This document shows, in pieces, positions 55,853 to 64,000 of a stretch of 64,000 nt of DNA. The notes below the pieces were generated by a model, which was not told the origin of the DNA, made no database searches, and saw nothing but the letters and a program-made list of their open reading frames with translations. This stretch comes from Fibrobacteria bacterium. Lineage in GTDB: Bacteria > Fibrobacterota > Fibrobacteria > UBA11236. The stretch lies in the NCBI GenBank assembly GCA_043745805.1, contig JAYTSD010000008.1:32001-96000 (forward strand), given 5' to 3'. Position 1 is the stretch's first letter. Every line of letters begins with the position of its first letter. Position numbers and translations under genes: made by a program.

Positions 55853-56256
55853 TTCATGCCACGATAAAGATTTAAACGCTCTTCAAGCCCTGCTGGAGGC
55901 AGTGGCGCAGTCTCAAATGAATCCGCATGTCGTACTTGTATCCCTTGCGCTAAGGTTTCTAATTCCGCGAGTAAAGTTTCCGCTTCACCCATTAAAATTT
56001 TTTGACGCTGAGTTTTTTCGAATTGAGAAAGTTTTTCAAGCAGCGGGCGAAGCGCATTTTTTTTGGCTTGCAAGGTCTCGGTAGCTAAAGTGAATTGAGC
56101 AATTAGTTCGGTTAGGCCTTCGGAGGAGGATTGCTGAGACTTTTGTAAAAATTGCACTTGCAAAACTTCGAGTCTACGAAAGGATTGCACATGCTCACGC
56201 AATAGGCTGGTAAAAAGCGCGAGTGGGAAAATTTTTTCAATTTCCAATTCCTTCAT
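55849..56256 (-). CDS. Helical hypothetical protein, possibly FlgN/FliT-like chaperone
   Basis: ATG at 56256 overlapping upstream stop; all-helical; C-terminal LNLYR; flagellar-regulator context. Confidence 0.45.
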   Translation of the reverse strand: MKELEIEKIFPLALFTSLLREHVQSFRRLEVLQVQFLQKSQQSSSEGLTELIAQFTLATETLQAKKNALRPLLEKLSQFEKTQRQKILMGEAETLLAELETLAQGIQVRHADSFETAPLPPAGLEERLNLYRGMK

Positions 56257-58384
56257 ATTGCTTTCGCCAAATTGTATCCTCTCTTTGCCATTTAGCCTGA
56301 GCGGCCCAATAACTATAAGGGTAATTATCAATTACCACCTTGTACTCGTTCAAGGCCATTTCGTAATTACTGGTTTCTTTATAGATGTTTGCCAATTGAT
56401 AGTGCACCCAAGAGCCGTCCTTAAAGCGTGGATCACGTTTAGCAATAGCCTGATATTCTTTTTTAGCCTCGGCCCAATTTTTATTTTTGAATTCAAAATC
56501 AGCGATTTGCACTTGTGATTCCGAACAAATGATATTCAATGCGGAATCGGTACAGTCATTGGAAGCCTTGCGAAAAAATTCTAAACCCTTTTCGGTATTC
56601 GCCGAACGCATATGCAAAGCCCCTAACTTGGCCCAAAGCTTTGCCTTCTTGTGCCTTTCGGTGGCGCTTTGAGCAGATTTTTCCAAATAACCGACCCACT
56701 TTTTAATATCCTGCGAAAGCTCCCCTACTTCCACCAAACGATCCTCTAAATTTTCATCTGAAGGCCCACCGGAACGCTTCGCTTTCAACCCATTCAGTAA
56801 ACGCTCGGCTTTTTCCCATGATTTTTTTTGCAAATGTGCTAAAGCTAAAAGGTATTGCGTTTGCGAGTTCAATTCGGAATCGGGAGTTAAGGATTTTAAT
56901 AATTCTTCGGTTTGTGCCAAGGCATTATCGTTTAATCCTAGTTGCAAATAGATGGTGGCCATATCTAAAGCTGCCACATCGGCGTATTCCGAGCCCCCAA
57001 ATTGCAAAATAATTTGCTTGAATTGATTAATCGCTTTTTCAAATCTCTCTTGTTTGTAGAGCTCTACCGCTTGATCTAGAGAGCCTCTGGCCTTACTCGC
57101 ATCATTCACACTATAAAACAAATAGCCTTCAACTGGCTTTGCGTGTGCAATCCGCAAAGTTAATTTTGCTACCTGCGATTTTGCCGATGGCAATTCCGTT
57201 TTCAACTCTGCATTCTGTTCTGTTTCGGATTTTATTTCCTCGGCATTATTTTCACCTTCTCGGTGATCCTTAGCCTTTTCATTTTCAGCAGTTTTTTTAA
57301 CTGCGGTATTTTCCGTGATATGTTCATTTTTATCAGCTATCGACTCAGTAACATTTGTGTTACCATGCAATTCTTGTAACCAAGTCTGCACTTGTTGCTT
57401 TGCATTTTCATCCGTGCTCACTTGCAAATATTTTTGATATTCACTTTCAGCCGCTTTTTTTTGTTTTTGGTTTTGATAAATTCGCCCTAAAAAATAATGG
57501 ACATTTTTGCCTTTTTCGGGATAAGCCTCACTGCGTTTAAAATTATATAAGGCCTTAGCATAATCGCCTTCTTGAAAACGAATTAAGCCACCCACATAGA
57601 ACGCACCGGCATGGCGCGGATTTTTATTCAAACATTCGCGTAAAGCTTTTTGTGCTAAATCCGTTTCGTTGGCATGATAATGCTGCAAGGCATTTGCAAA
57701 CTCTGGGCTGGCATAGACGCCCGTTTGCTGCGGTGCGGATAAGTTTGCGTCAAAAATAGTTTGATTATTTGCCGAAGGCTTTGCTTGTGGTAAAGGGTCT
57801 TCGCTTGCTTTAATTTTGGGCAACTCTTTAGACTTAGGCGTTTTATTCACGTCCGCTTTTATCGGCTCAGGATGATTGTCTTTTGCAGGAATCGTTTTAG
57901 CTTCAGGTGGTGCGTGGTCTTCTTCGGCTGCGACACCCTGATAAGGTGGACTTTCGATATTCGCAAATCTTTTTTGCGCACGATTTTTTTGTGCTGGATC
58001 TTGACTTAAATCGATTAATTTTCGCCACTCTAATTTGGCTTTATCTTTATCGCCATTTTTTTCATAAACCTGTGCTAAAGCTTCTTGAACATTTAATAAA
58101 CTCGGTTTTTTCTTAAGCGCTACTTTATAATTATCAGCAGCAAGCTTATAATTGCCCTGCTGCATACGGATTTTGCCAATTTCAGCATAGATCTCAGCTG
58201 CATCGGGATGCTCGCTTAAATAAAGGCGATACTCTTGTACCGCCTTATCATAATTTCCTTTTTCAATCCATTTTTGCGCAGACTCTAAACGCACATCGTC
58301 TTGTGCTGCGAAACTGGTTGTGCAAGCTAAGGCTAAACAAACCAGTATCCCAAAAAAATGCGAAGAGATCTTAACGCTTGTCAA
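56237..58384 (-). CDS. Secreted multi-TPR protein
   Basis: Signal peptide (TSFA), many TPR repeats with low-complexity linkers; TTG at 58384 likelier start. Confidence 0.8.
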   Translation of the reverse strand: MTSVKISSHFFGILVCLALACTTSFAAQDDVRLESAQKWIEKGNYDKAVQEYRLYLSEHPDAAEIYAEIGKIRMQQGNYKLAADNYKVALKKKPSLLNVQEALAQVYEKNGDKDKAKLEWRKLIDLSQDPAQKNRAQKRFANIESPPYQGVAAEEDHAPPEAKTIPAKDNHPEPIKADVNKTPKSKELPKIKASEDPLPQAKPSANNQTIFDANLSAPQQTGVYASPEFANALQHYHANETDLAQKALRECLNKNPRHAGAFYVGGLIRFQEGDYAKALYNFKRSEAYPEKGKNVHYFLGRIYQNQKQKKAAESEYQKYLQVSTDENAKQQVQTWLQELHGNTNVTESIADKNEHITENTAVKKTAENEKAKDHREGENNAEEIKSETEQNAELKTELPSAKSQVAKLTLRIAHAKPVEGYLFYSVNDASKARGSLDQAVELYKQERFEKAINQFKQIILQFGGSEYADVAALDMATIYLQLGLNDNALAQTEELLKSLTPDSELNSQTQYLLALAHLQKKSWEKAERLLNGLKAKRSGGPSDENLEDRLVEVGELSQDIKKWVGYLEKSAQSATERHKKAKLWAKLGALHMRSANTEKGLEFFRKASNDCTDSALNIICSESQVQIADFEFKNKNWAEAKKEYQAIAKRDPRFKDGSWVHYQLANIYKETSNYEMALNEYKVVIDNYPYSYWAAQAKWQREDTIWRKQYEGIGN

Positions 58385-59558
58385 AGCGTAGTACTCGCAC
58401 TTGCACCACATTGCTGATTTTTTGTAAAGATTCCAACAGAGCATTTGGCAATTCCGCTTCTAAATCAATAATATTATAGCCTATCTTACCATTGCTTTCA
58501 TTGGTATATGCTTGAATATTTAATCCGGCTCCACCCAAAACCTGAGTAATATGCGCAATCATATTAGGAACATCTTTGTTTATCACAATAATACGTGTTT
58601 GCGTGCTTTGTTGGGGAAACACTTCTATTGTTGGAAAATTCACTGAGTTATGCACCACGCCGTATTCCAAATACTCTTTGGTTTGCTTAACCGCCATCAC
58701 CGCACAATTTTCTTCGGACTCCGCAGTGCTTGCGCCCAAATGCGGTGTGCAAATTACTGCAGGATTTTCAATTAAGGTTTTAGTAGGGAAATCGGTAATA
58801 TAAGCCGAGACTTTACCACTAGTAATTCCTTTGAGCACCGCCTCATCATCATAAATCCCTTTGCGTGCATAGTTCAAAAGAATGGCGTTGCCTTTTAGTT
58901 TTGCGATGCGTTCATCATTGATTAAATGTTTGGTTTTATCGCTTAAAGGAACATGCACAGAAATGACATCACAATGCTGTACGATATAATCAACCGTATG
59001 GGCAATTTCAACTTTAGGATTGAGTAAATGCACATTAGCAATGGTAGGAAAAGGATCGTAGCCAATGACATTCATCCCATGATCAATTCCATAATTCGAA
59101 ACCAATACACCAATTTTTCCTAAGCCAATAACGCCTAAAGTTTTGCCGGCCAATTCCATGCCAGTATAGTTTGCTTTACCCTTTTCCACTTTTTCGGAAA
59201 TTACTTTTTCATCGGTTTCTTTAGCCAAGGATAAAGTAAACTCCAAACTTTTATGAATTTTACGCGCGGCAATACCCATCATAATAAATACTAACTCGGC
59301 TACCGCATTCGCATTGGCTCCAGGCGTATTGAAAATACAAACCCCTTTTTCGGTAGCTTTATCAATAGTGATATTGTTAACACCTGCACCTGCTCGAGCA
59401 ATTGATATGGCCGTAGGAAAATTATCCGTATCCACCAAAGCACTACGAACCAAAATTGCATCCGGTTGGCTTTCTTCTGATTGCACCGCATAACCCTCAC
59501 CAAATAGTTTTAGGCCCTGAGGCGAAATATTATTAAGGGTTTTAATTTTATACGGCAT
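58371..59558 (-). CDS. serA: D-3-phosphoglycerate dehydrogenase with ACT domain
   Basis: RAGAGVNNI, NTPGANANAVAEL, GLGKIG, TPHLGAST, NKDVPNMI. Confidence 0.92.
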   Translation of the reverse strand: MPYKIKTLNNISPQGLKLFGEGYAVQSEESQPDAILVRSALVDTDNFPTAISIARAGAGVNNITIDKATEKGVCIFNTPGANANAVAELVFIMMGIAARKIHKSLEFTLSLAKETDEKVISEKVEKGKANYTGMELAGKTLGVIGLGKIGVLVSNYGIDHGMNVIGYDPFPTIANVHLLNPKVEIAHTVDYIVQHCDVISVHVPLSDKTKHLINDERIAKLKGNAILLNYARKGIYDDEAVLKGITSGKVSAYITDFPTKTLIENPAVICTPHLGASTAESEENCAVMAVKQTKEYLEYGVVHNSVNFPTIEVFPQQSTQTRIIVINKDVPNMIAHITQVLGGAGLNIQAYTNESNGKIGYNIIDLEAELPNALLESLQKISNVVQVRVLRFDKR

Positions 59559-60642: not shown

Positions 60643-60672
60643 AAAAAATCGGGTAGCCCGAAAGGACTTCCG
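60643..60672 (-). terminator. Intrinsic terminator after the Ig-heme gene
   Basis: Minus strand CGGAAGTCC-TTTC-GGGCTACCCG followed by ATTTTTT. Confidence 0.55.
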
Positions 60673-60704: not shown

Positions 60705-62198
60705 CTATAGTCCATTCACAGCCAGCCACTCATTTAAAACAGCCAATGTTGCTGGTGTTAATTGCCCTGAAGGAGGCATTGGAATTGTTGAAGAGTTAAT
60801 TCGACTTTTAAAATTTACAACGTCCGCCCTTACAATTGTTTCATCAGCCCAACTTTTTTGCGGGGCACCAGAAGGAATATTTCCCACGTGGCAACTATTA
60901 CAGCTTACTGAAGTAATTGCTGCCACATCCGCAAAATTAGCCTTCACGATCACACTAAAAGCATTTGTCTTGGTGCCATCAGAACTCGTAGCTGTTACTG
61001 TGGCACTTCCTCTAGACTGGCCATAATACAGCGTCCCGCTAATAAGCACGGATGCATTGCTGCTAGCGAGCGAATAGCTCGTATTTGTTGGGCTCGAAGG
61101 ATTCCAAACAACTGAAGTGTTGTGCCAACCATCGGCATGAACAATCGAAGTCGCTCCGGATACCGTCAAACCAATAACCGGCGTAGTCACCGTAACATTA
61201 AAGCTACTCGCTGCCGTACCCGTACTATTATCAGTTGCCGTGATGGAAACGGAAGTATTCACCACATCGCAAATTCCGGTTATAGTTTTAGCTGCATTGT
61301 CCACAATCACACAATTCGATGAACTTACCATACTAAAAGTTTGATCTGTGCTGGCAGATGGCAAAATAGTAGGCGCAATTACCAGACTCGAGCCGCCTTT
61401 AAATAAACTTTTTGCAGCTACCGTAATACTCGTGGGATGAATAGGCTGCACCGTGGCATTAAAAGTTCCGGTGACCGACCCACTTACTGAAGTGATAGTA
61501 ATTAAAGTGGTTCCCACGCTGACGCCGAAAAGATTATGTCCCGAAACGGTTACCCCTGCCCCACCACTCGCAAGCGTATAAGCGATATTGGTGGCATCAC
61601 TGGGCGCTACGGTTACCGCGGGTGTTACAGTTTGCCCAACAGCCAAAGAAATGGGTGACGCCGAAACCGACGTGACCGGAACGAAGGCCGCTTGCACGGT
61701 AACTTGAAAAGTACTTTGTGCACTTCCATCATGGGAACTTATGGTGATTTGCGCATTGCCCAGATTAATGGCCTTTAAAGTGTCGCCAGCAATAGCAACC
61801 ACAGATAAATTGGAACTAATGAGCGAATAGGTTTTATCGCTGGCTGTGACAGGAAGAACTCCAATGGCAGGAAGTGTATCTTGCCCTTTAATCAAAACCA
61901 TATCTAAAGCCGAAAGTGACGCCACAGGAACAGTAACCGTAATCACATGCGCCGAAAAAGTAGTTACCCATCCCCTATCATTAGTGGTAAGGGTTATAGT
62001 CGCCGTGCCTTGTTTTACACCGATTAAGGAATCGCCCTTTATGGACACTATAGAAGAATCGGAACTCGTTAAGTTATAACTTTTATCAGTAGCATTAGTA
62101 GGTGTAAAGGAAATGCTGGGCAAGGCGACTTGCCCGAGATTAAGATTTATGGATGCAGCAGAGACACTAGTTAGGGGGTAAAAAAAAAATCTATCCAC
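60705..62198 (-). CDS. C-terminal part of Ig-repeat / c-type heme protein (five Big_2-like repeats plus one CxxCH module), out of frame with upstream part
   Basis: Repeats with P..A(T/S)(D/N)K motif; CNSCH...IPMPP; no RBS or signal peptide; starts at the T10 run. Confidence 0.8.
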   Translation of the reverse strand: MDRFFFYPLTSVSAASINLNLGQVALPSISFTPTNATDKSYNLTSSDSSIVSIKGDSLIGVKQGTATITLTTNDRGWVTTFSAHVITVTVPVASLSALDMVLIKGQDTLPAIGVLPVTASDKTYSLISSNLSVVAIAGDTLKAINLGNAQITISSHDGSAQSTFQVTVQAAFVPVTSVSASPISLAVGQTVTPAVTVAPSDATNIAYTLASGGAGVTVSGHNLFGVSVGTTLITITSVSGSVTGTFNATVQPIHPTSITVAAKSLFKGGSSLVIAPTILPSASTDQTFSMVSSSNCVIVDNAAKTITGICDVVNTSVSITATDNSTGTAASSFNVTVTTPVIGLTVSGATSIVHADGWHNTSVVWNPSSPTNTSYSLASSNASVLISGTLYYGQSRGSATVTATSSDGTKTNAFSVIVKANFADVAAITSVSCNSCHVGNIPSGAPQKSWADETIVRADVVNFKSRINSSTIPMPPSGQLTPATLAVLNEWLAVNGL

Positions 62199-64000
62199 TG
62201 GACTATTTGATTGATATCTTTTTGGTCCAGCCGCTTCTGCGGTTGAGGTGGCATGATACCAGGAGTTCCAGAAGCTTTTGAAATTCGGTTCTTAATAATA
62301 TCTGCTCGAGACTTATCCAATAGACTAGTTGAATCTGTGGCATTAAAACCATTATTTGAATTACTATGACAAGCCGCACAATGCGCTTCCATTAAAGGAA
62401 GTATGGTTTCTTTAAAGGATATAGGCTTTACTTTTACCGTAAAATTTTTACTAACTAATCCATGAGCGACAGTAACCGTTGCATTACCGGCTTTTTTTCC
62501 CACTAGTCTTCCGCCAATTAAGGTCACGAGAGCGGTATCGGCTGTGCTTAGTGTGTAGGTTCTTTCGGAAGTGCTATCGGGGATCCAAATAATATAGGGA
62601 TGTAAAGTATCATCCACAGTAATGCTCGTATCCGCTATATTCAATCCAGTAAAAGCTATGGATTTCGGATTTAAAAAATTCTGCAAAATAAGCGAATCAT
62701 GTTTGTTTAATTTTGCATTAATCGGCATAAATTTGGGATCAGTATCGACTAAACCTAAGCGCTGCAAAATAATGGATTTATTATTCATTAGAGTAGCCGA
62801 ATCGGTATAATCCTTTGAAGTAGATGGACCATGGCAGCGCCCGCAATTGTATTGAACTATCGGCGATATTTGGCTATTGAATGTCGGCAAAACAATATTA
62901 AAAATAAAATTACTTTTTACGCCTCCATCTTTACTCGTCGCTTCAATTACCGTTTTACCCAATTTCTTAGCAAACAAATGATCATTCTCTCCCACTACTG
63001 TTACTTTTTGTGCATCAGCGGCATTCAAAAAGCTTAAGATGAAGTTTTGATTGCTGGCATCAATTGGAGTCCAACGGAAGGTGGGCTTTATAGTATCCCC
63101 TAATACAGCAAATGTATCTGGCGCAAAAAAGGAATTCACTTTGATGGAACGCCCGCTAATCCACTTTACCACAATGGCTATTTCGGCATCGGTAATATCC
63201 CCATTAATTGCTTGGTCGGATTGTACGGGCATGCGGCCATTATTTGCTACTCCACGTGGGCGAGTAATTCTATCCGTGATATTTATTCCATATTGCAAAA
63301 CCGCCAAGGAATCTTGCCAGTTTAAAAGCGAGGAGGGAGTATGACAAGGAAAACATTTTAAAGTGGTAATGGGTAAAACATTTTTTTTGAAATTCACTAA
63401 AATAGTCACTTTAAAAGTTGTATGAATACTGCTATCCATTGCACTAGTTACCTGAATAGTATCTACACCAAACCCTTTGGCCACTATCGTATCATTAGCA
63501 ATAGACACCAAGGAAGAAGTATTTAAATTTTTAAAAATCATCTTACGATTCGAGGCGTCGTTGGGTATTAAAGCAAGATTAGCTTTTAAAGTGTCTCCCA
63601 AATAAATACTGGTATCACGAACCGCGATTTTGGTTAATGTTACCAAATTATCATCTTTCGCGAAAACTTGGAAAAAACTATTGGCATTTCCATCCGCACT
63701 AATGATTTGCACCGAGTCTTGACCCGCACCCAAAGCTGTTATTTGATTACCCGTAACTTGCAAGATACCATTGATTTTGACTTTTAAGGTAAAGAGTTTA
63801 TTGGAGGCTGTGTCTGGTAAAATTTTTACGGTTGGCGATTTTAATTCGCCCACATTTAAACGCAGCGTGTCCGCGGAAATATTTTTTACTAAAACTTTTA
63901 AATCTTTGCCCACCGAATCGATTGCCTTATAACCGGAATACTCAAATTGTTTATCATAAACGATGCCACCATTTTTTAAGCCAATGACTTTGACCGAAAA
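62171..64000 (-). CDS. N-terminal part (truncated at window edge) of Ig-repeat / c-type heme protein: four Big_2-like repeats and three CxxCH modules visible
   Basis: Frame open to 64000; CFPCH, CGRCH and CAACH, each followed by an MP motif. Confidence 0.85.
   Translation of the reverse strand, partial: FSVKVIGLKNGGIVYDKQFEYSGYKAIDSVGKDLKVLVKNISADTLRLNVGELKSPTVKILPDTASNKLFTLKVKINGILQVTGNQITALGAGQDSVQIISADGNANSFFQVFAKDDNLVTLTKIAVRDTSIYLGDTLKANLALIPNDASNRKMIFKNLNTSSLVSIANDTIVAKGFGVDTIQVTSAMDSSIHTTFKVTILVNFKKNVLPITTLKCFPCHTPSSLLNWQDSLAVLQYGINITDRITRPRGVANNGRMPVQSDQAINGDITDAEIAIVVKWISGRSIKVNSFFAPDTFAVLGDTIKPTFRWTPIDASNQNFILSFLNAADAQKVTVVGENDHLFAKKLGKTVIEATSKDGGVKSNFIFNIVLPTFNSQISPIVQYNCGRCHGPSTSKDYTDSATLMNNKSIILQRLGLVDTDPKFMPINAKLNKHDSLILQNFLNPKSIAFTGLNIADTSITVDDTLHPYIIWIPDSTSERTYTLSTADTALVTLIGGRLVGKKAGNATVTVAHGLVSKNFTVKVKPISFKETILPLMEAHCAACHSNSNNGFNATDSTSLLDKSRADIIKNRISKASGTPGIMPPQPQKRLDQKDINQIVQWIDFFFTP
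62174..62189 (-). repeat. Homopolymer T10-A-C5 at the frameshift junction
   Basis: Plus strand GGGGG-T-AAAAAAAAAA. Confidence 0.9.

Follow-up and report, generated by a model that had tools for sequence, protein, structure and literature searches.

PgcA of Geobacter sulfurreducens was presented in 2023 under the terms 'hemes on a string' and 'microbial heme-tethered redox strings' (PMC10570954). It is reported to be a lipoprotein whose N-terminal domain is followed by three mono-heme domains, with Pro-Thr stretches as linkers. For TERTU_2913 and Cbp2D, secreted multi-domain proteins are reported in which flexible linkers connect several c-type cytochrome domains (PMC10916295, PMC8981238). The present analysis concerns a gene on the minus strand of a 64,000-nucleotide (nt) stretch of DNA, termed the window, from a Fibrobacteria bacterium (GenBank assembly GCA_043745805.1, contig JAYTSD010000008.1, positions 32,001 to 96,000). 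The gene is read in two open reading frames, ORF1 and ORF2, which together encode a string of immunoglobulin (Ig)-like domains punctuated by single c-type heme modules. Its family follows the tethered-heme string principle, with the linkers replaced by folded Ig domains, in a separate lineage. Unless a contig is named, coordinates are window positions.

The window protein and PgcA have in common a lipobox, a structured N-terminal domain, several spaced mono-heme domains and hemes too distant from one another for a fixed wire. The two differ in their spacers, which are unstructured Pro-Thr linkers in PgcA and folded Big_2-like Ig domains here. PgcA also has three hemes with variable axial ligands, whereas a Met-Pro pair is invariant in the window family, and the phyla differ. 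Fold likeness between the two is weak (VIA-align Z 3.2 for PgcA domain 2; Foldseek E 5.7 for domain 1). A second comparison is with Cbp2D and Cbp2E of Cellvibrio japonicus, and TERTU_2913 and TERTU_3803 of Teredinibacter turnerae, whose c-type cytochrome domains are X183 domains. Here the shared features are several small c-type cytochrome domains spaced along the chain, a partner that is not known, and a setting in polysaccharide degraders. As described, however, the Cbp2D/TERTU_2913 group carries flexible linkers and CBM, X122 and X132 domains in place of Ig strings, and its members are not lipoproteins. The fold likeness to TtX183A is likewise weak (VIA-align Z 2.5). A literature search, with supplements outside its scope, returned no description of an Ig-spaced mono-heme cytochrome architecture or family, and passages of PMC11495043 contain nothing on it. 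An earlier note on this DNA, made from the letters alone, had known of no described family with this architecture; that stands for the family itself, while the tethered-heme design has precedents in PgcA and Cbp2D/TERTU_2913.

ORF1 (62171..64273, minus strand) encodes 700 amino acids (aa). Its 5′ end lies 273 nt past the window end, leaving 62171..64000 inside the window, and the start at 64273 was recovered by reading the contig beyond that end. The earlier note had placed the N-terminus beyond 64000 and proposed a lipoprotein check, and a lipoprotein-like N-terminus is indeed found there: a basic n-region, a hydrophobic core and a W-S-A-C lipobox with Cys29, called by eye. Of 15 aligned relatives, at least 90% share the lipobox Cys. 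It is followed in the AlphaFold2 model by a beta domain of ~95 aa (ORF1 aa ~30-125) with the family motif LDS..VGKFDS, which is conserved in relatives. The C-terminal end of this domain occupies 63899..64000, and its remainder and the lipobox lie beyond the window, to 64273.

The rest of ORF1 alternates Ig-like and heme domains, all on the minus strand, with the Ig-like (Big_2-like) repeats placed by a repeat hidden Markov model (HMM) and by AlphaFold2. Repeats 1 (63647..63895, aa 127-209) and 2 (63389..63643, aa 211-295) precede heme module 1 (63125..63409; CxxCH at 63341-63355, Met-Pro at aa 348-349). Repeat 3 (62894..63145, aa 377-460) leads to heme module 2 (62639..62899; CxxCH at 62831-62845, Met-Pro at aa 516-517), and repeat 4 (62417..62659, aa 539-619) to heme module 3 (62174..62434; CxxCH at 62366-62380, Met-Pro at aa 674-675). 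ORF2 (60705..62198, minus strand) continues with five Ig-like repeats, Ig5-Ig9 (60933..62183; ORF2 aa 6-89, 89-173, 172-254, 254-338 and 341-422), and ends in heme module 4 (60708..60956; CxxCH at 60888-60902), in which Met-Pro is present and all six invariant family residues are kept. The full order is therefore lipobox, N-terminal beta domain, Ig-Ig-heme-Ig-heme-Ig-heme in ORF1 and Ig x5-heme in ORF2, and the earlier note had given the Ig and heme order correctly. No signal peptide of its own was found for ORF2, so this frame alone could not reach the heme-attachment machinery.

The heme modules stand out at the DNA level. The pattern TGY-N6-TGY-CAY occurs 11 times in the window, a count that none of 100 shuffles (3.13 +/- 1.72 matches) attains; all four CxxCH sites of the earlier note coincide exactly with such matches. 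Among the window's stop-to-stop frames of at least 100 aa, in-frame CxxCH is confined to ORF1 and ORF2 (two of two). The motif occurs in all four modules at spacings of 155-170 aa and then ~500 aa, which bears out the distinction drawn in the earlier note from closely stacked nanowire cytochromes, with their few tens of residues per heme. In MtrC, OmcS and similar cytochromes, many hemes are packed within tunnelling distance. The window protein would share with them heme c and possibly an envelope or extracellular redox role, but has one heme site per module, whole Ig domains in between and a conserved Met.

Both Cys and the His of the motif, an Asp ~10 residues downstream of that His, and the Met and Pro further on are invariant in 30 of 30 aligned family modules. 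Conservation of CxxCH in homologs, on which the earlier note had made its proposal depend, is thus complete in this set, and its suggestion that the downstream Met-Pro supplies the distal ligand fits the same alignment: axial ligation is probably His/Met. In the Pfam scan, module 3 matches Cytochrome_CBB3 with 45.5 bits in the protein and 35.5 alone (cut-off 27) and Cytochrom_C with 31.8 (cut-off 21.3). A profile of the 30 modules, searched against the sequences of the PDB, finds the CcoP domain (E 1.9e-5), hydrazine synthase alpha (2.5e-4) and cytochromes c6, and the family Met-Pro aligns with that of CcoP. Modelled alone, module 2 forms four helices with a predicted local distance difference test (pLDDT) score of 86.9, and four helices are also found in the 700-aa model. 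Class I cytochromes c such as CcoP and cytochrome c6 likewise have CxxCH near the end of the first helix, Met-Pro before the last helix, ~80 aa and four helices; what differs is that here the domain is repeated three to four times within an Ig string of at least 1000 aa. Judged from sequence, then, the modules are divergent class I cytochrome c domains, as the earlier note had held in calling them c-type heme modules.

Its further likening of the modules to PSCyt1-type domains was not supported. The PSCyt1 model (PF07635) finds nothing in the ORFs at E up to 1 or, with the limit relaxed to 10, in the four modules. The module pattern is similar to that of PSCyt1 proteins, and the module profile does find more distant proteins that bear PSCyt1, for example P0018 (E 7.5e-29; 254 bits to PSCyt1), but the window protein is without PSCyt2 or PSD1 domains. 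An NCBIfam scan yielded far sub-threshold rows only. Class-specific HMMs assign modules 1 and 2 to the internal type of the relatives and modules 3 and 4 to their C-terminal type, module 3 scoring best with the HMM of the relatives' C-terminal modules. Complex prediction for modules 1 and 2, with 10-row alignments each, gave a score of 0.01 and a mark of 0.32.

The nine Big_2-like repeats listed in the earlier note are confirmed. All nine peptide motifs that it quoted are present (ORF1 aa 153, 237, 403 and 565; ORF2 aa 33, 116, 199, 280 and 367) and mark nine repeats of ~83 aa, four in ORF1 and five in ORF2. The repeat HMM was trained on these same nine repeats, so its E-values are not independent and show their mutual likeness only. 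Pfam Big_2 (PF02368) passes its cut-off of 22.8 bits in ORF2 (27.5 bits, 3 stretches). ORF1 scores 15.8 bits, under that cut-off, and its repeats align with those of ORF2; relatives reach up to 85 bits. The AlphaFold2 model of the 700-aa ORF1 has beta-sandwich domains at the repeat positions (mean pLDDT 78.5), and in Foldseek the whole model matches only multi-Ig and S-layer proteins, including SbsB, Sap, EA1 and cadherins. The nearest ESM Atlas clusters to ORF1 are generic Big_2 or c-type cytochrome clusters, with scores of at most 0.87. Tandem Ig-like domains of ~83 aa are shared with Big_2 adhesins and Ig-string S-layer proteins; none of the matched Ig-string structures is described with cytochrome modules between its Ig domains. 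The surface exposure and the rigid stalk that the earlier note derived from these repeats were overstated there and are better taken as inferences. On contig C4 of the same genome, a minus-strand frame of 785 aa contains eight repeats that match the Ig-repeat HMM (E 1.2e-76). The heme-module HMM, searched to E 1, does not pick it up, which suggests a paralogue of the rod with Ig domains only.

ORF1 and ORF2 overlap at a run of ten T on the coding strand (T10; 62180..62189, minus strand), which is the site of the reading-frame change. The ORF1 frame meets a stop three codons past the run. In the ORF2 frame, translation past T10 would read Y-P-L-T-S-V and stay open for 494 codons; one added T, or a -1 slip, would join the ORF1 frame to ORF2. 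Homopolymers of at least 10 nt number only 25 in the 3.95 Mb genome, and T10 alone among them joins two long frames. ORF1 and ORF2 are, on this sequence evidence, one gene broken at T10, because the relatives are unsplit, the spacing of a Pro-Leu pair is kept across the junction, ORF2 is open with its invariant residues intact, and a terminator-like site follows ORF2 only. The relatives' best matches are single open frames of 958-1163 aa with no stops. The Pro-Leu pair stands 7 and 8 residues past the module's conserved Trp in the ORF2 frame, the same spacing as after the internal modules of relatives. A terminator-like hairpin followed by a T run lies ~45 nt past the ORF2 stop (60649..60661, minus strand), and no terminator-like site was found after the ORF1 stop. 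The earlier note, in reading the two ORFs together, was right about a single gene and its order; its frames are not contiguous, and the T10 frameshift lies between them.

Over the stretch 61700-62700, T10 appears without an indel in the contigs of four of four sequencing runs, all from one study of a sediment metagenome. Two of the runs contain a variant strain with three single-nucleotide polymorphisms (SNPs) in ORF2, a very small sample, of which two are synonymous and one changes Thr to Asn in the ORF2 frame. The other two runs may be those from which the assembly was made and so are not independent evidence for T10. Because the runs were compared as contigs, T9 or T11 in a minority of molecules would go unseen, and a T10/T11 mixture may be present. 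In many bacteria, a run of nine A or T is enough for transcriptional slippage (PMC1088944). T10 falls in the slippery-homopolymer class of nine or more taken from that source, exactly at the frame junction. With slippage already seen at runs of nine, a fraction of long-form product is plausible.

The gene belongs to a small family. In a word-indexed search, P0002 (1119 aa, 28% identity, 97% coverage) was the only full relative, next to a single protein with Ig domains alone; one relative carries the JGI name 'uncharacterized protein YjdB'. When 1.84 billion cluster representatives were searched with a profile of the four modules, 3039 proteins matched at E up to 0.001, and 13 of these reached E up to 1e-30. 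Of the 152 proteins collected, 18 have a CxxCH as well as two or more Big_2-like repeats; two of the 18 are the window's own ORFs, which leaves 16 other cluster representatives. Twelve full-length relatives (949-1147 aa) all have a lipobox-like motif, with three CxxCH and 7-9 Ig repeats; their CxxCH motifs are spaced by ~160 aa and then by 405-510 aa. The nearest relative is ~30-41% identical. All nine related loci in a species-genome collection come from metagenome-assembled genomes (MAGs) titled Fibrobacterota, Fibrobacteria or Fibrobacteres. The search of Fibrobacterota MAGs proposed in the earlier note located the gene in 13 of the 31 genomes that make up the window's family-level group (12 of 30 when one unpublished genome is set aside), and it was found in none of 264 genomes from 20 other Fibrobacterota families. 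As far as searched, the family thus appears confined to one lineage of the phylum. The window copy differs from its relatives in having four modules and in being the only copy split at a T run. Because module 3 is of the C-terminal type by the class-specific HMMs, ORF1 alone already has the three modules usual in the family. In three of the nine related MAG loci (L011, L012, L013), the family gene is split between frames or contains masked bases.

Elsewhere the genome carries genes that could mature such a protein. CcsA (two matches) and ResB are present, constituting system II cytochrome c maturation, which answers the check for maturation genes proposed in the earlier note. CcsA is found in 31 of 31 relatives sampled, so its presence does not tell genomes that have the family from those that lack it. 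The genome also encodes a heme-copper oxidase, a five-CxxCH cytochrome with Cytochrome_C7/c3-type matches, a three-CxxCH class I cytochrome, two CCP_MauG peroxidases, DHOR proteins and small cytochromes c. No LPMO_10 was found in this genome, whose completeness is 99.19%, which makes an LPMO partner of that family unlikely.

We favor, at a probability of about 60%, the reading that ORF1 and ORF2 form one gene for a lipid-anchored redox string of ~1190 aa, in which His/Met hemes are held apart by Ig spacers, and which is made in a short three-heme and possibly also a long four-heme form. The protein would be exported by Sec and acylated at the lipobox Cys29, and the CcsA/ResB machinery would attach one heme c to each CxxCH. 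Each module of ~80 aa, with the CxxCH His and the Met of Met-Pro as axial ligands, would act as a one-electron carrier. Big_2-like Ig domains would serve as spacers, one between internal modules and five before the terminal module. An Ig domain is ~4 nm long and electron tunnelling in proteins is limited to ~1.4 nm, so neighboring hemes of a straight molecule could not exchange electrons directly. The protein would then function as a string of redox carriers, each tethered at a fixed distance from the membrane, and not as a stacked-heme wire. Electrons might pass by hinge bending, by contacts between neighboring molecules, or to soluble or solid partners. Standard decoding at T10 would give the 700-aa three-heme form, and the long four-heme form would arise from transcriptional slippage, from a -1 slip of the ribosome on the U run or from a change in tract length between T10 and T11.

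The frame junction can be read in other ways. T10 might be a fixed mutation, in which case the cell makes nothing but the 700-aa three-heme protein, and ORF2 is a recent remnant that is not translated. This plain truncation is quite possible, although we place it at less than even odds. ORF1 ends just past a complete heme module of C-terminal type, its product has the usual three modules, and T10 is present in the contigs of all four runs, the variant strain included. Several observations at the junction count against a programmed long form. Neither a T run nor a split occurs at this site in any relative (the closest available has 41% local identity), and no hairpin was found 5-9 nt from the slippery run, the usual distance; the nearest, and the only good one, lies 44 nt downstream of T10, with z -2.8 against mononucleotide shuffles. 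Given no slippery run in relatives and no canonical hairpin, a truncating mutation is the simplest reading. A remnant, however, sits uneasily with an ORF2 that has no stop in 494 codons and keeps all invariant heme-module residues, with the sharing of T10 by two strains that differ by SNPs and in both of which ORF2 is open, and with a run longer than the slippage-prone nine (PMC1088944). A sequencing or assembly error at the homopolymer, the real gene being one uninterrupted ORF, is distinctly improbable. Homopolymers are error-prone, the relatives are uninterrupted, and the split or masked frames at three of nine related MAG loci could also be assembly faults, but the contigs of four runs agree on T10, with the qualification that they come from one study, that two may be the assembly source and that contigs mask minority variants.

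The remaining alternatives concern what the protein does and where. As a periplasmic tethered carrier, it would be a lipoprotein on the periplasm-facing leaflet that shuttles electrons to the heme-copper oxidase or to di-heme peroxidase-like enzymes, like membrane-anchored cytochromes c elsewhere. The closest solved sequence relative of the modules is the CcoP domain of cbb3 oxidase, the genome has a heme-copper oxidase, two CCP_MauG peroxidases and several DHOR proteins, heme attachment is periplasmic, and the sequence gives no proof of export across the outer membrane. We nonetheless consider this role somewhat unlikely. Nine Ig domains and four modules, fully extended, are estimated to far exceed the width of the periplasm, and no oxidase or peroxidase gene adjoins the cytochrome gene here or in relatives. 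In related phyla, acidic residues shortly after the lipobox Cys are surface-export signals, and the acidic residues a few positions past the Cys of the window protein may resemble them. A different proposal is that the protein is an adhesin or surface-layer protein in which the heme modules do not carry electrons but sense redox state, a gas or a ligand, store heme, or are structural inserts. Most of the protein is a string of Ig domains, as in adhesins and S-layer proteins, and the genes immediately upstream on this strand encode a PAS histidine kinase, a receiver protein and an Hpt protein. These signalling genes are not kept beside the relatives' genes, though, and CxxCH, Asp and Met-Pro are as strict across 30 of 30 modules as in working class I cytochromes with an electron-transfer role. 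We regard this as the least likely of the readings considered.

The redox-string reading has its own weak points beyond the junction. Scanned alone, modules 1, 2 and 4 fall under the Pfam cytochrome cut-offs, module 3 being the sole one to pass them. The single-module model has no Foldseek match in the PDB at E up to 0.001. In an exhaustive VIA-align search, the top rows are all c-type cytochromes (PccH Z 6.3, FoxE Z 5.7, YhjA Z 4.7), with Z ~6 in a range that is possibly unspecific by the tool's own statement. The 700-aa model has a predicted template modelling score (pTM) of 0.44, at which inter-domain geometry is unreliable. The gene context is also unhelpful. The only recurrent neighbor is a 232-aa TPR-like protein, encoded upstream in four of nine related loci. 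Upstream genes of relatives otherwise include the housekeeping genes for thiolase and 3-hydroxyacyl-CoA dehydrogenase, and downstream genes encode an unknown protein of 274-288 aa, an Rrf2 regulator, succinyl-CoA ligase and malate dehydrogenase (one locus by Pfam scan, the others from ORF maps). With one recurrent neighbor and the rest housekeeping, the context gives no functional partner.

An Ig-plus-single-heme design may, by sequence, recur in several lineages, in at least five other proteins. Heme-module profile matches occur in P0016, where CxxCH recurs every ~297 aa five times, and in P0085, where it recurs every ~328 aa seven times; P0112 and P0121 each contain seven CxxCH, mostly ~214 aa apart. 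These four and P0120 are uncharacterised, with CxxCH spacing that is partly or fully regular, and their spacers are fn3, Big_7, Kre9-like or ASH/HYDIN-like. P0031, of 749 aa, has seven profile-matched stretches and a C-terminal Por_Secre_tail, a type IX secretion sorting domain, a hint at surface export of such modules in related phyla.

A bolder proposal, which we regard as improbable, is that Ig-spaced heme strings are an unrecognised class of envelope redox proteins. Ig rulers would set heme heights, packed molecules would conduct laterally or take electrons from Fe(II), humics or partner cells, slippage at T10 would set the ratio of the short form to a long form whose tip heme lies ~20 nm further out, and the design, with fn3, ASH/HYDIN-like or Big_7 spacers in at least five other proteins, would be a repeated invention. 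Fibrobacterota have been studied as polysaccharide degraders, and the literature search found no envelope redox protein of this kind for the phylum. A conserved lipoprotein that places single hemes between Ig domains would be a sign that this sediment lineage carries out redox chemistry in its envelope or outside the cell. Rigid spacers instead of the flexible linkers of PgcA would, if true, be a second way to tether hemes beyond tunnelling distance, and the frame junction at T10 would give the tethered-heme string an added twist. The annotation gap may exceed this one family, as the profile also finds other regularly spaced heme proteins. Should the modules bind no heme, or the protein be a plain periplasmic carrier, the finding would be of modest interest.

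At the locus itself, the minus-strand order is Hpt protein, receiver protein, PAS histidine kinase, 232-aa TPR-like protein and cytochrome gene, followed by a 237-aa unknown protein, a 2-hydroxyacid dehydrogenase and a large TPR protein. The 232-aa ORF overlaps the start of ORF1 by 4 nt, and the nearest ESM Atlas clusters to its product are hypothetical or TPR-like. The signalling genes (Hpt, receiver and a double-PAS histidine kinase) lie past the window end at 65110-67540, on the same strand, and are absent from the relatives' loci. Two genes downstream of the cytochrome gene is a TPR protein of 735 aa (56237-58444, minus strand). It scores 36 bits with TPR_Slam (cut-off 35.2) and 38.7 with the CcmH/CycH TPR domain (cut-off 42), a weak lead in view of the cross-matching of TPR models. 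Promoter-like sites are not above chance, with 25 found against 21.4 expected.

Elsewhere in the genome, adjacent frames of 514 and 538 aa at C8:361570-365422 have two CxxCH each and a signal-like N-terminus, and neither has a Pfam match at E up to 1e-5. At C20:197750-203182, C33:1592-7306, C44:37674-44719 and C43:108736-110133, seven frames contain two CxxCH each. All four of the two-CxxCH frames that were scanned, three of which have an N-terminal extension of ~500 aa without a Pfam match, match DHOR (di-haem oxidoreductase, putative peroxidase).

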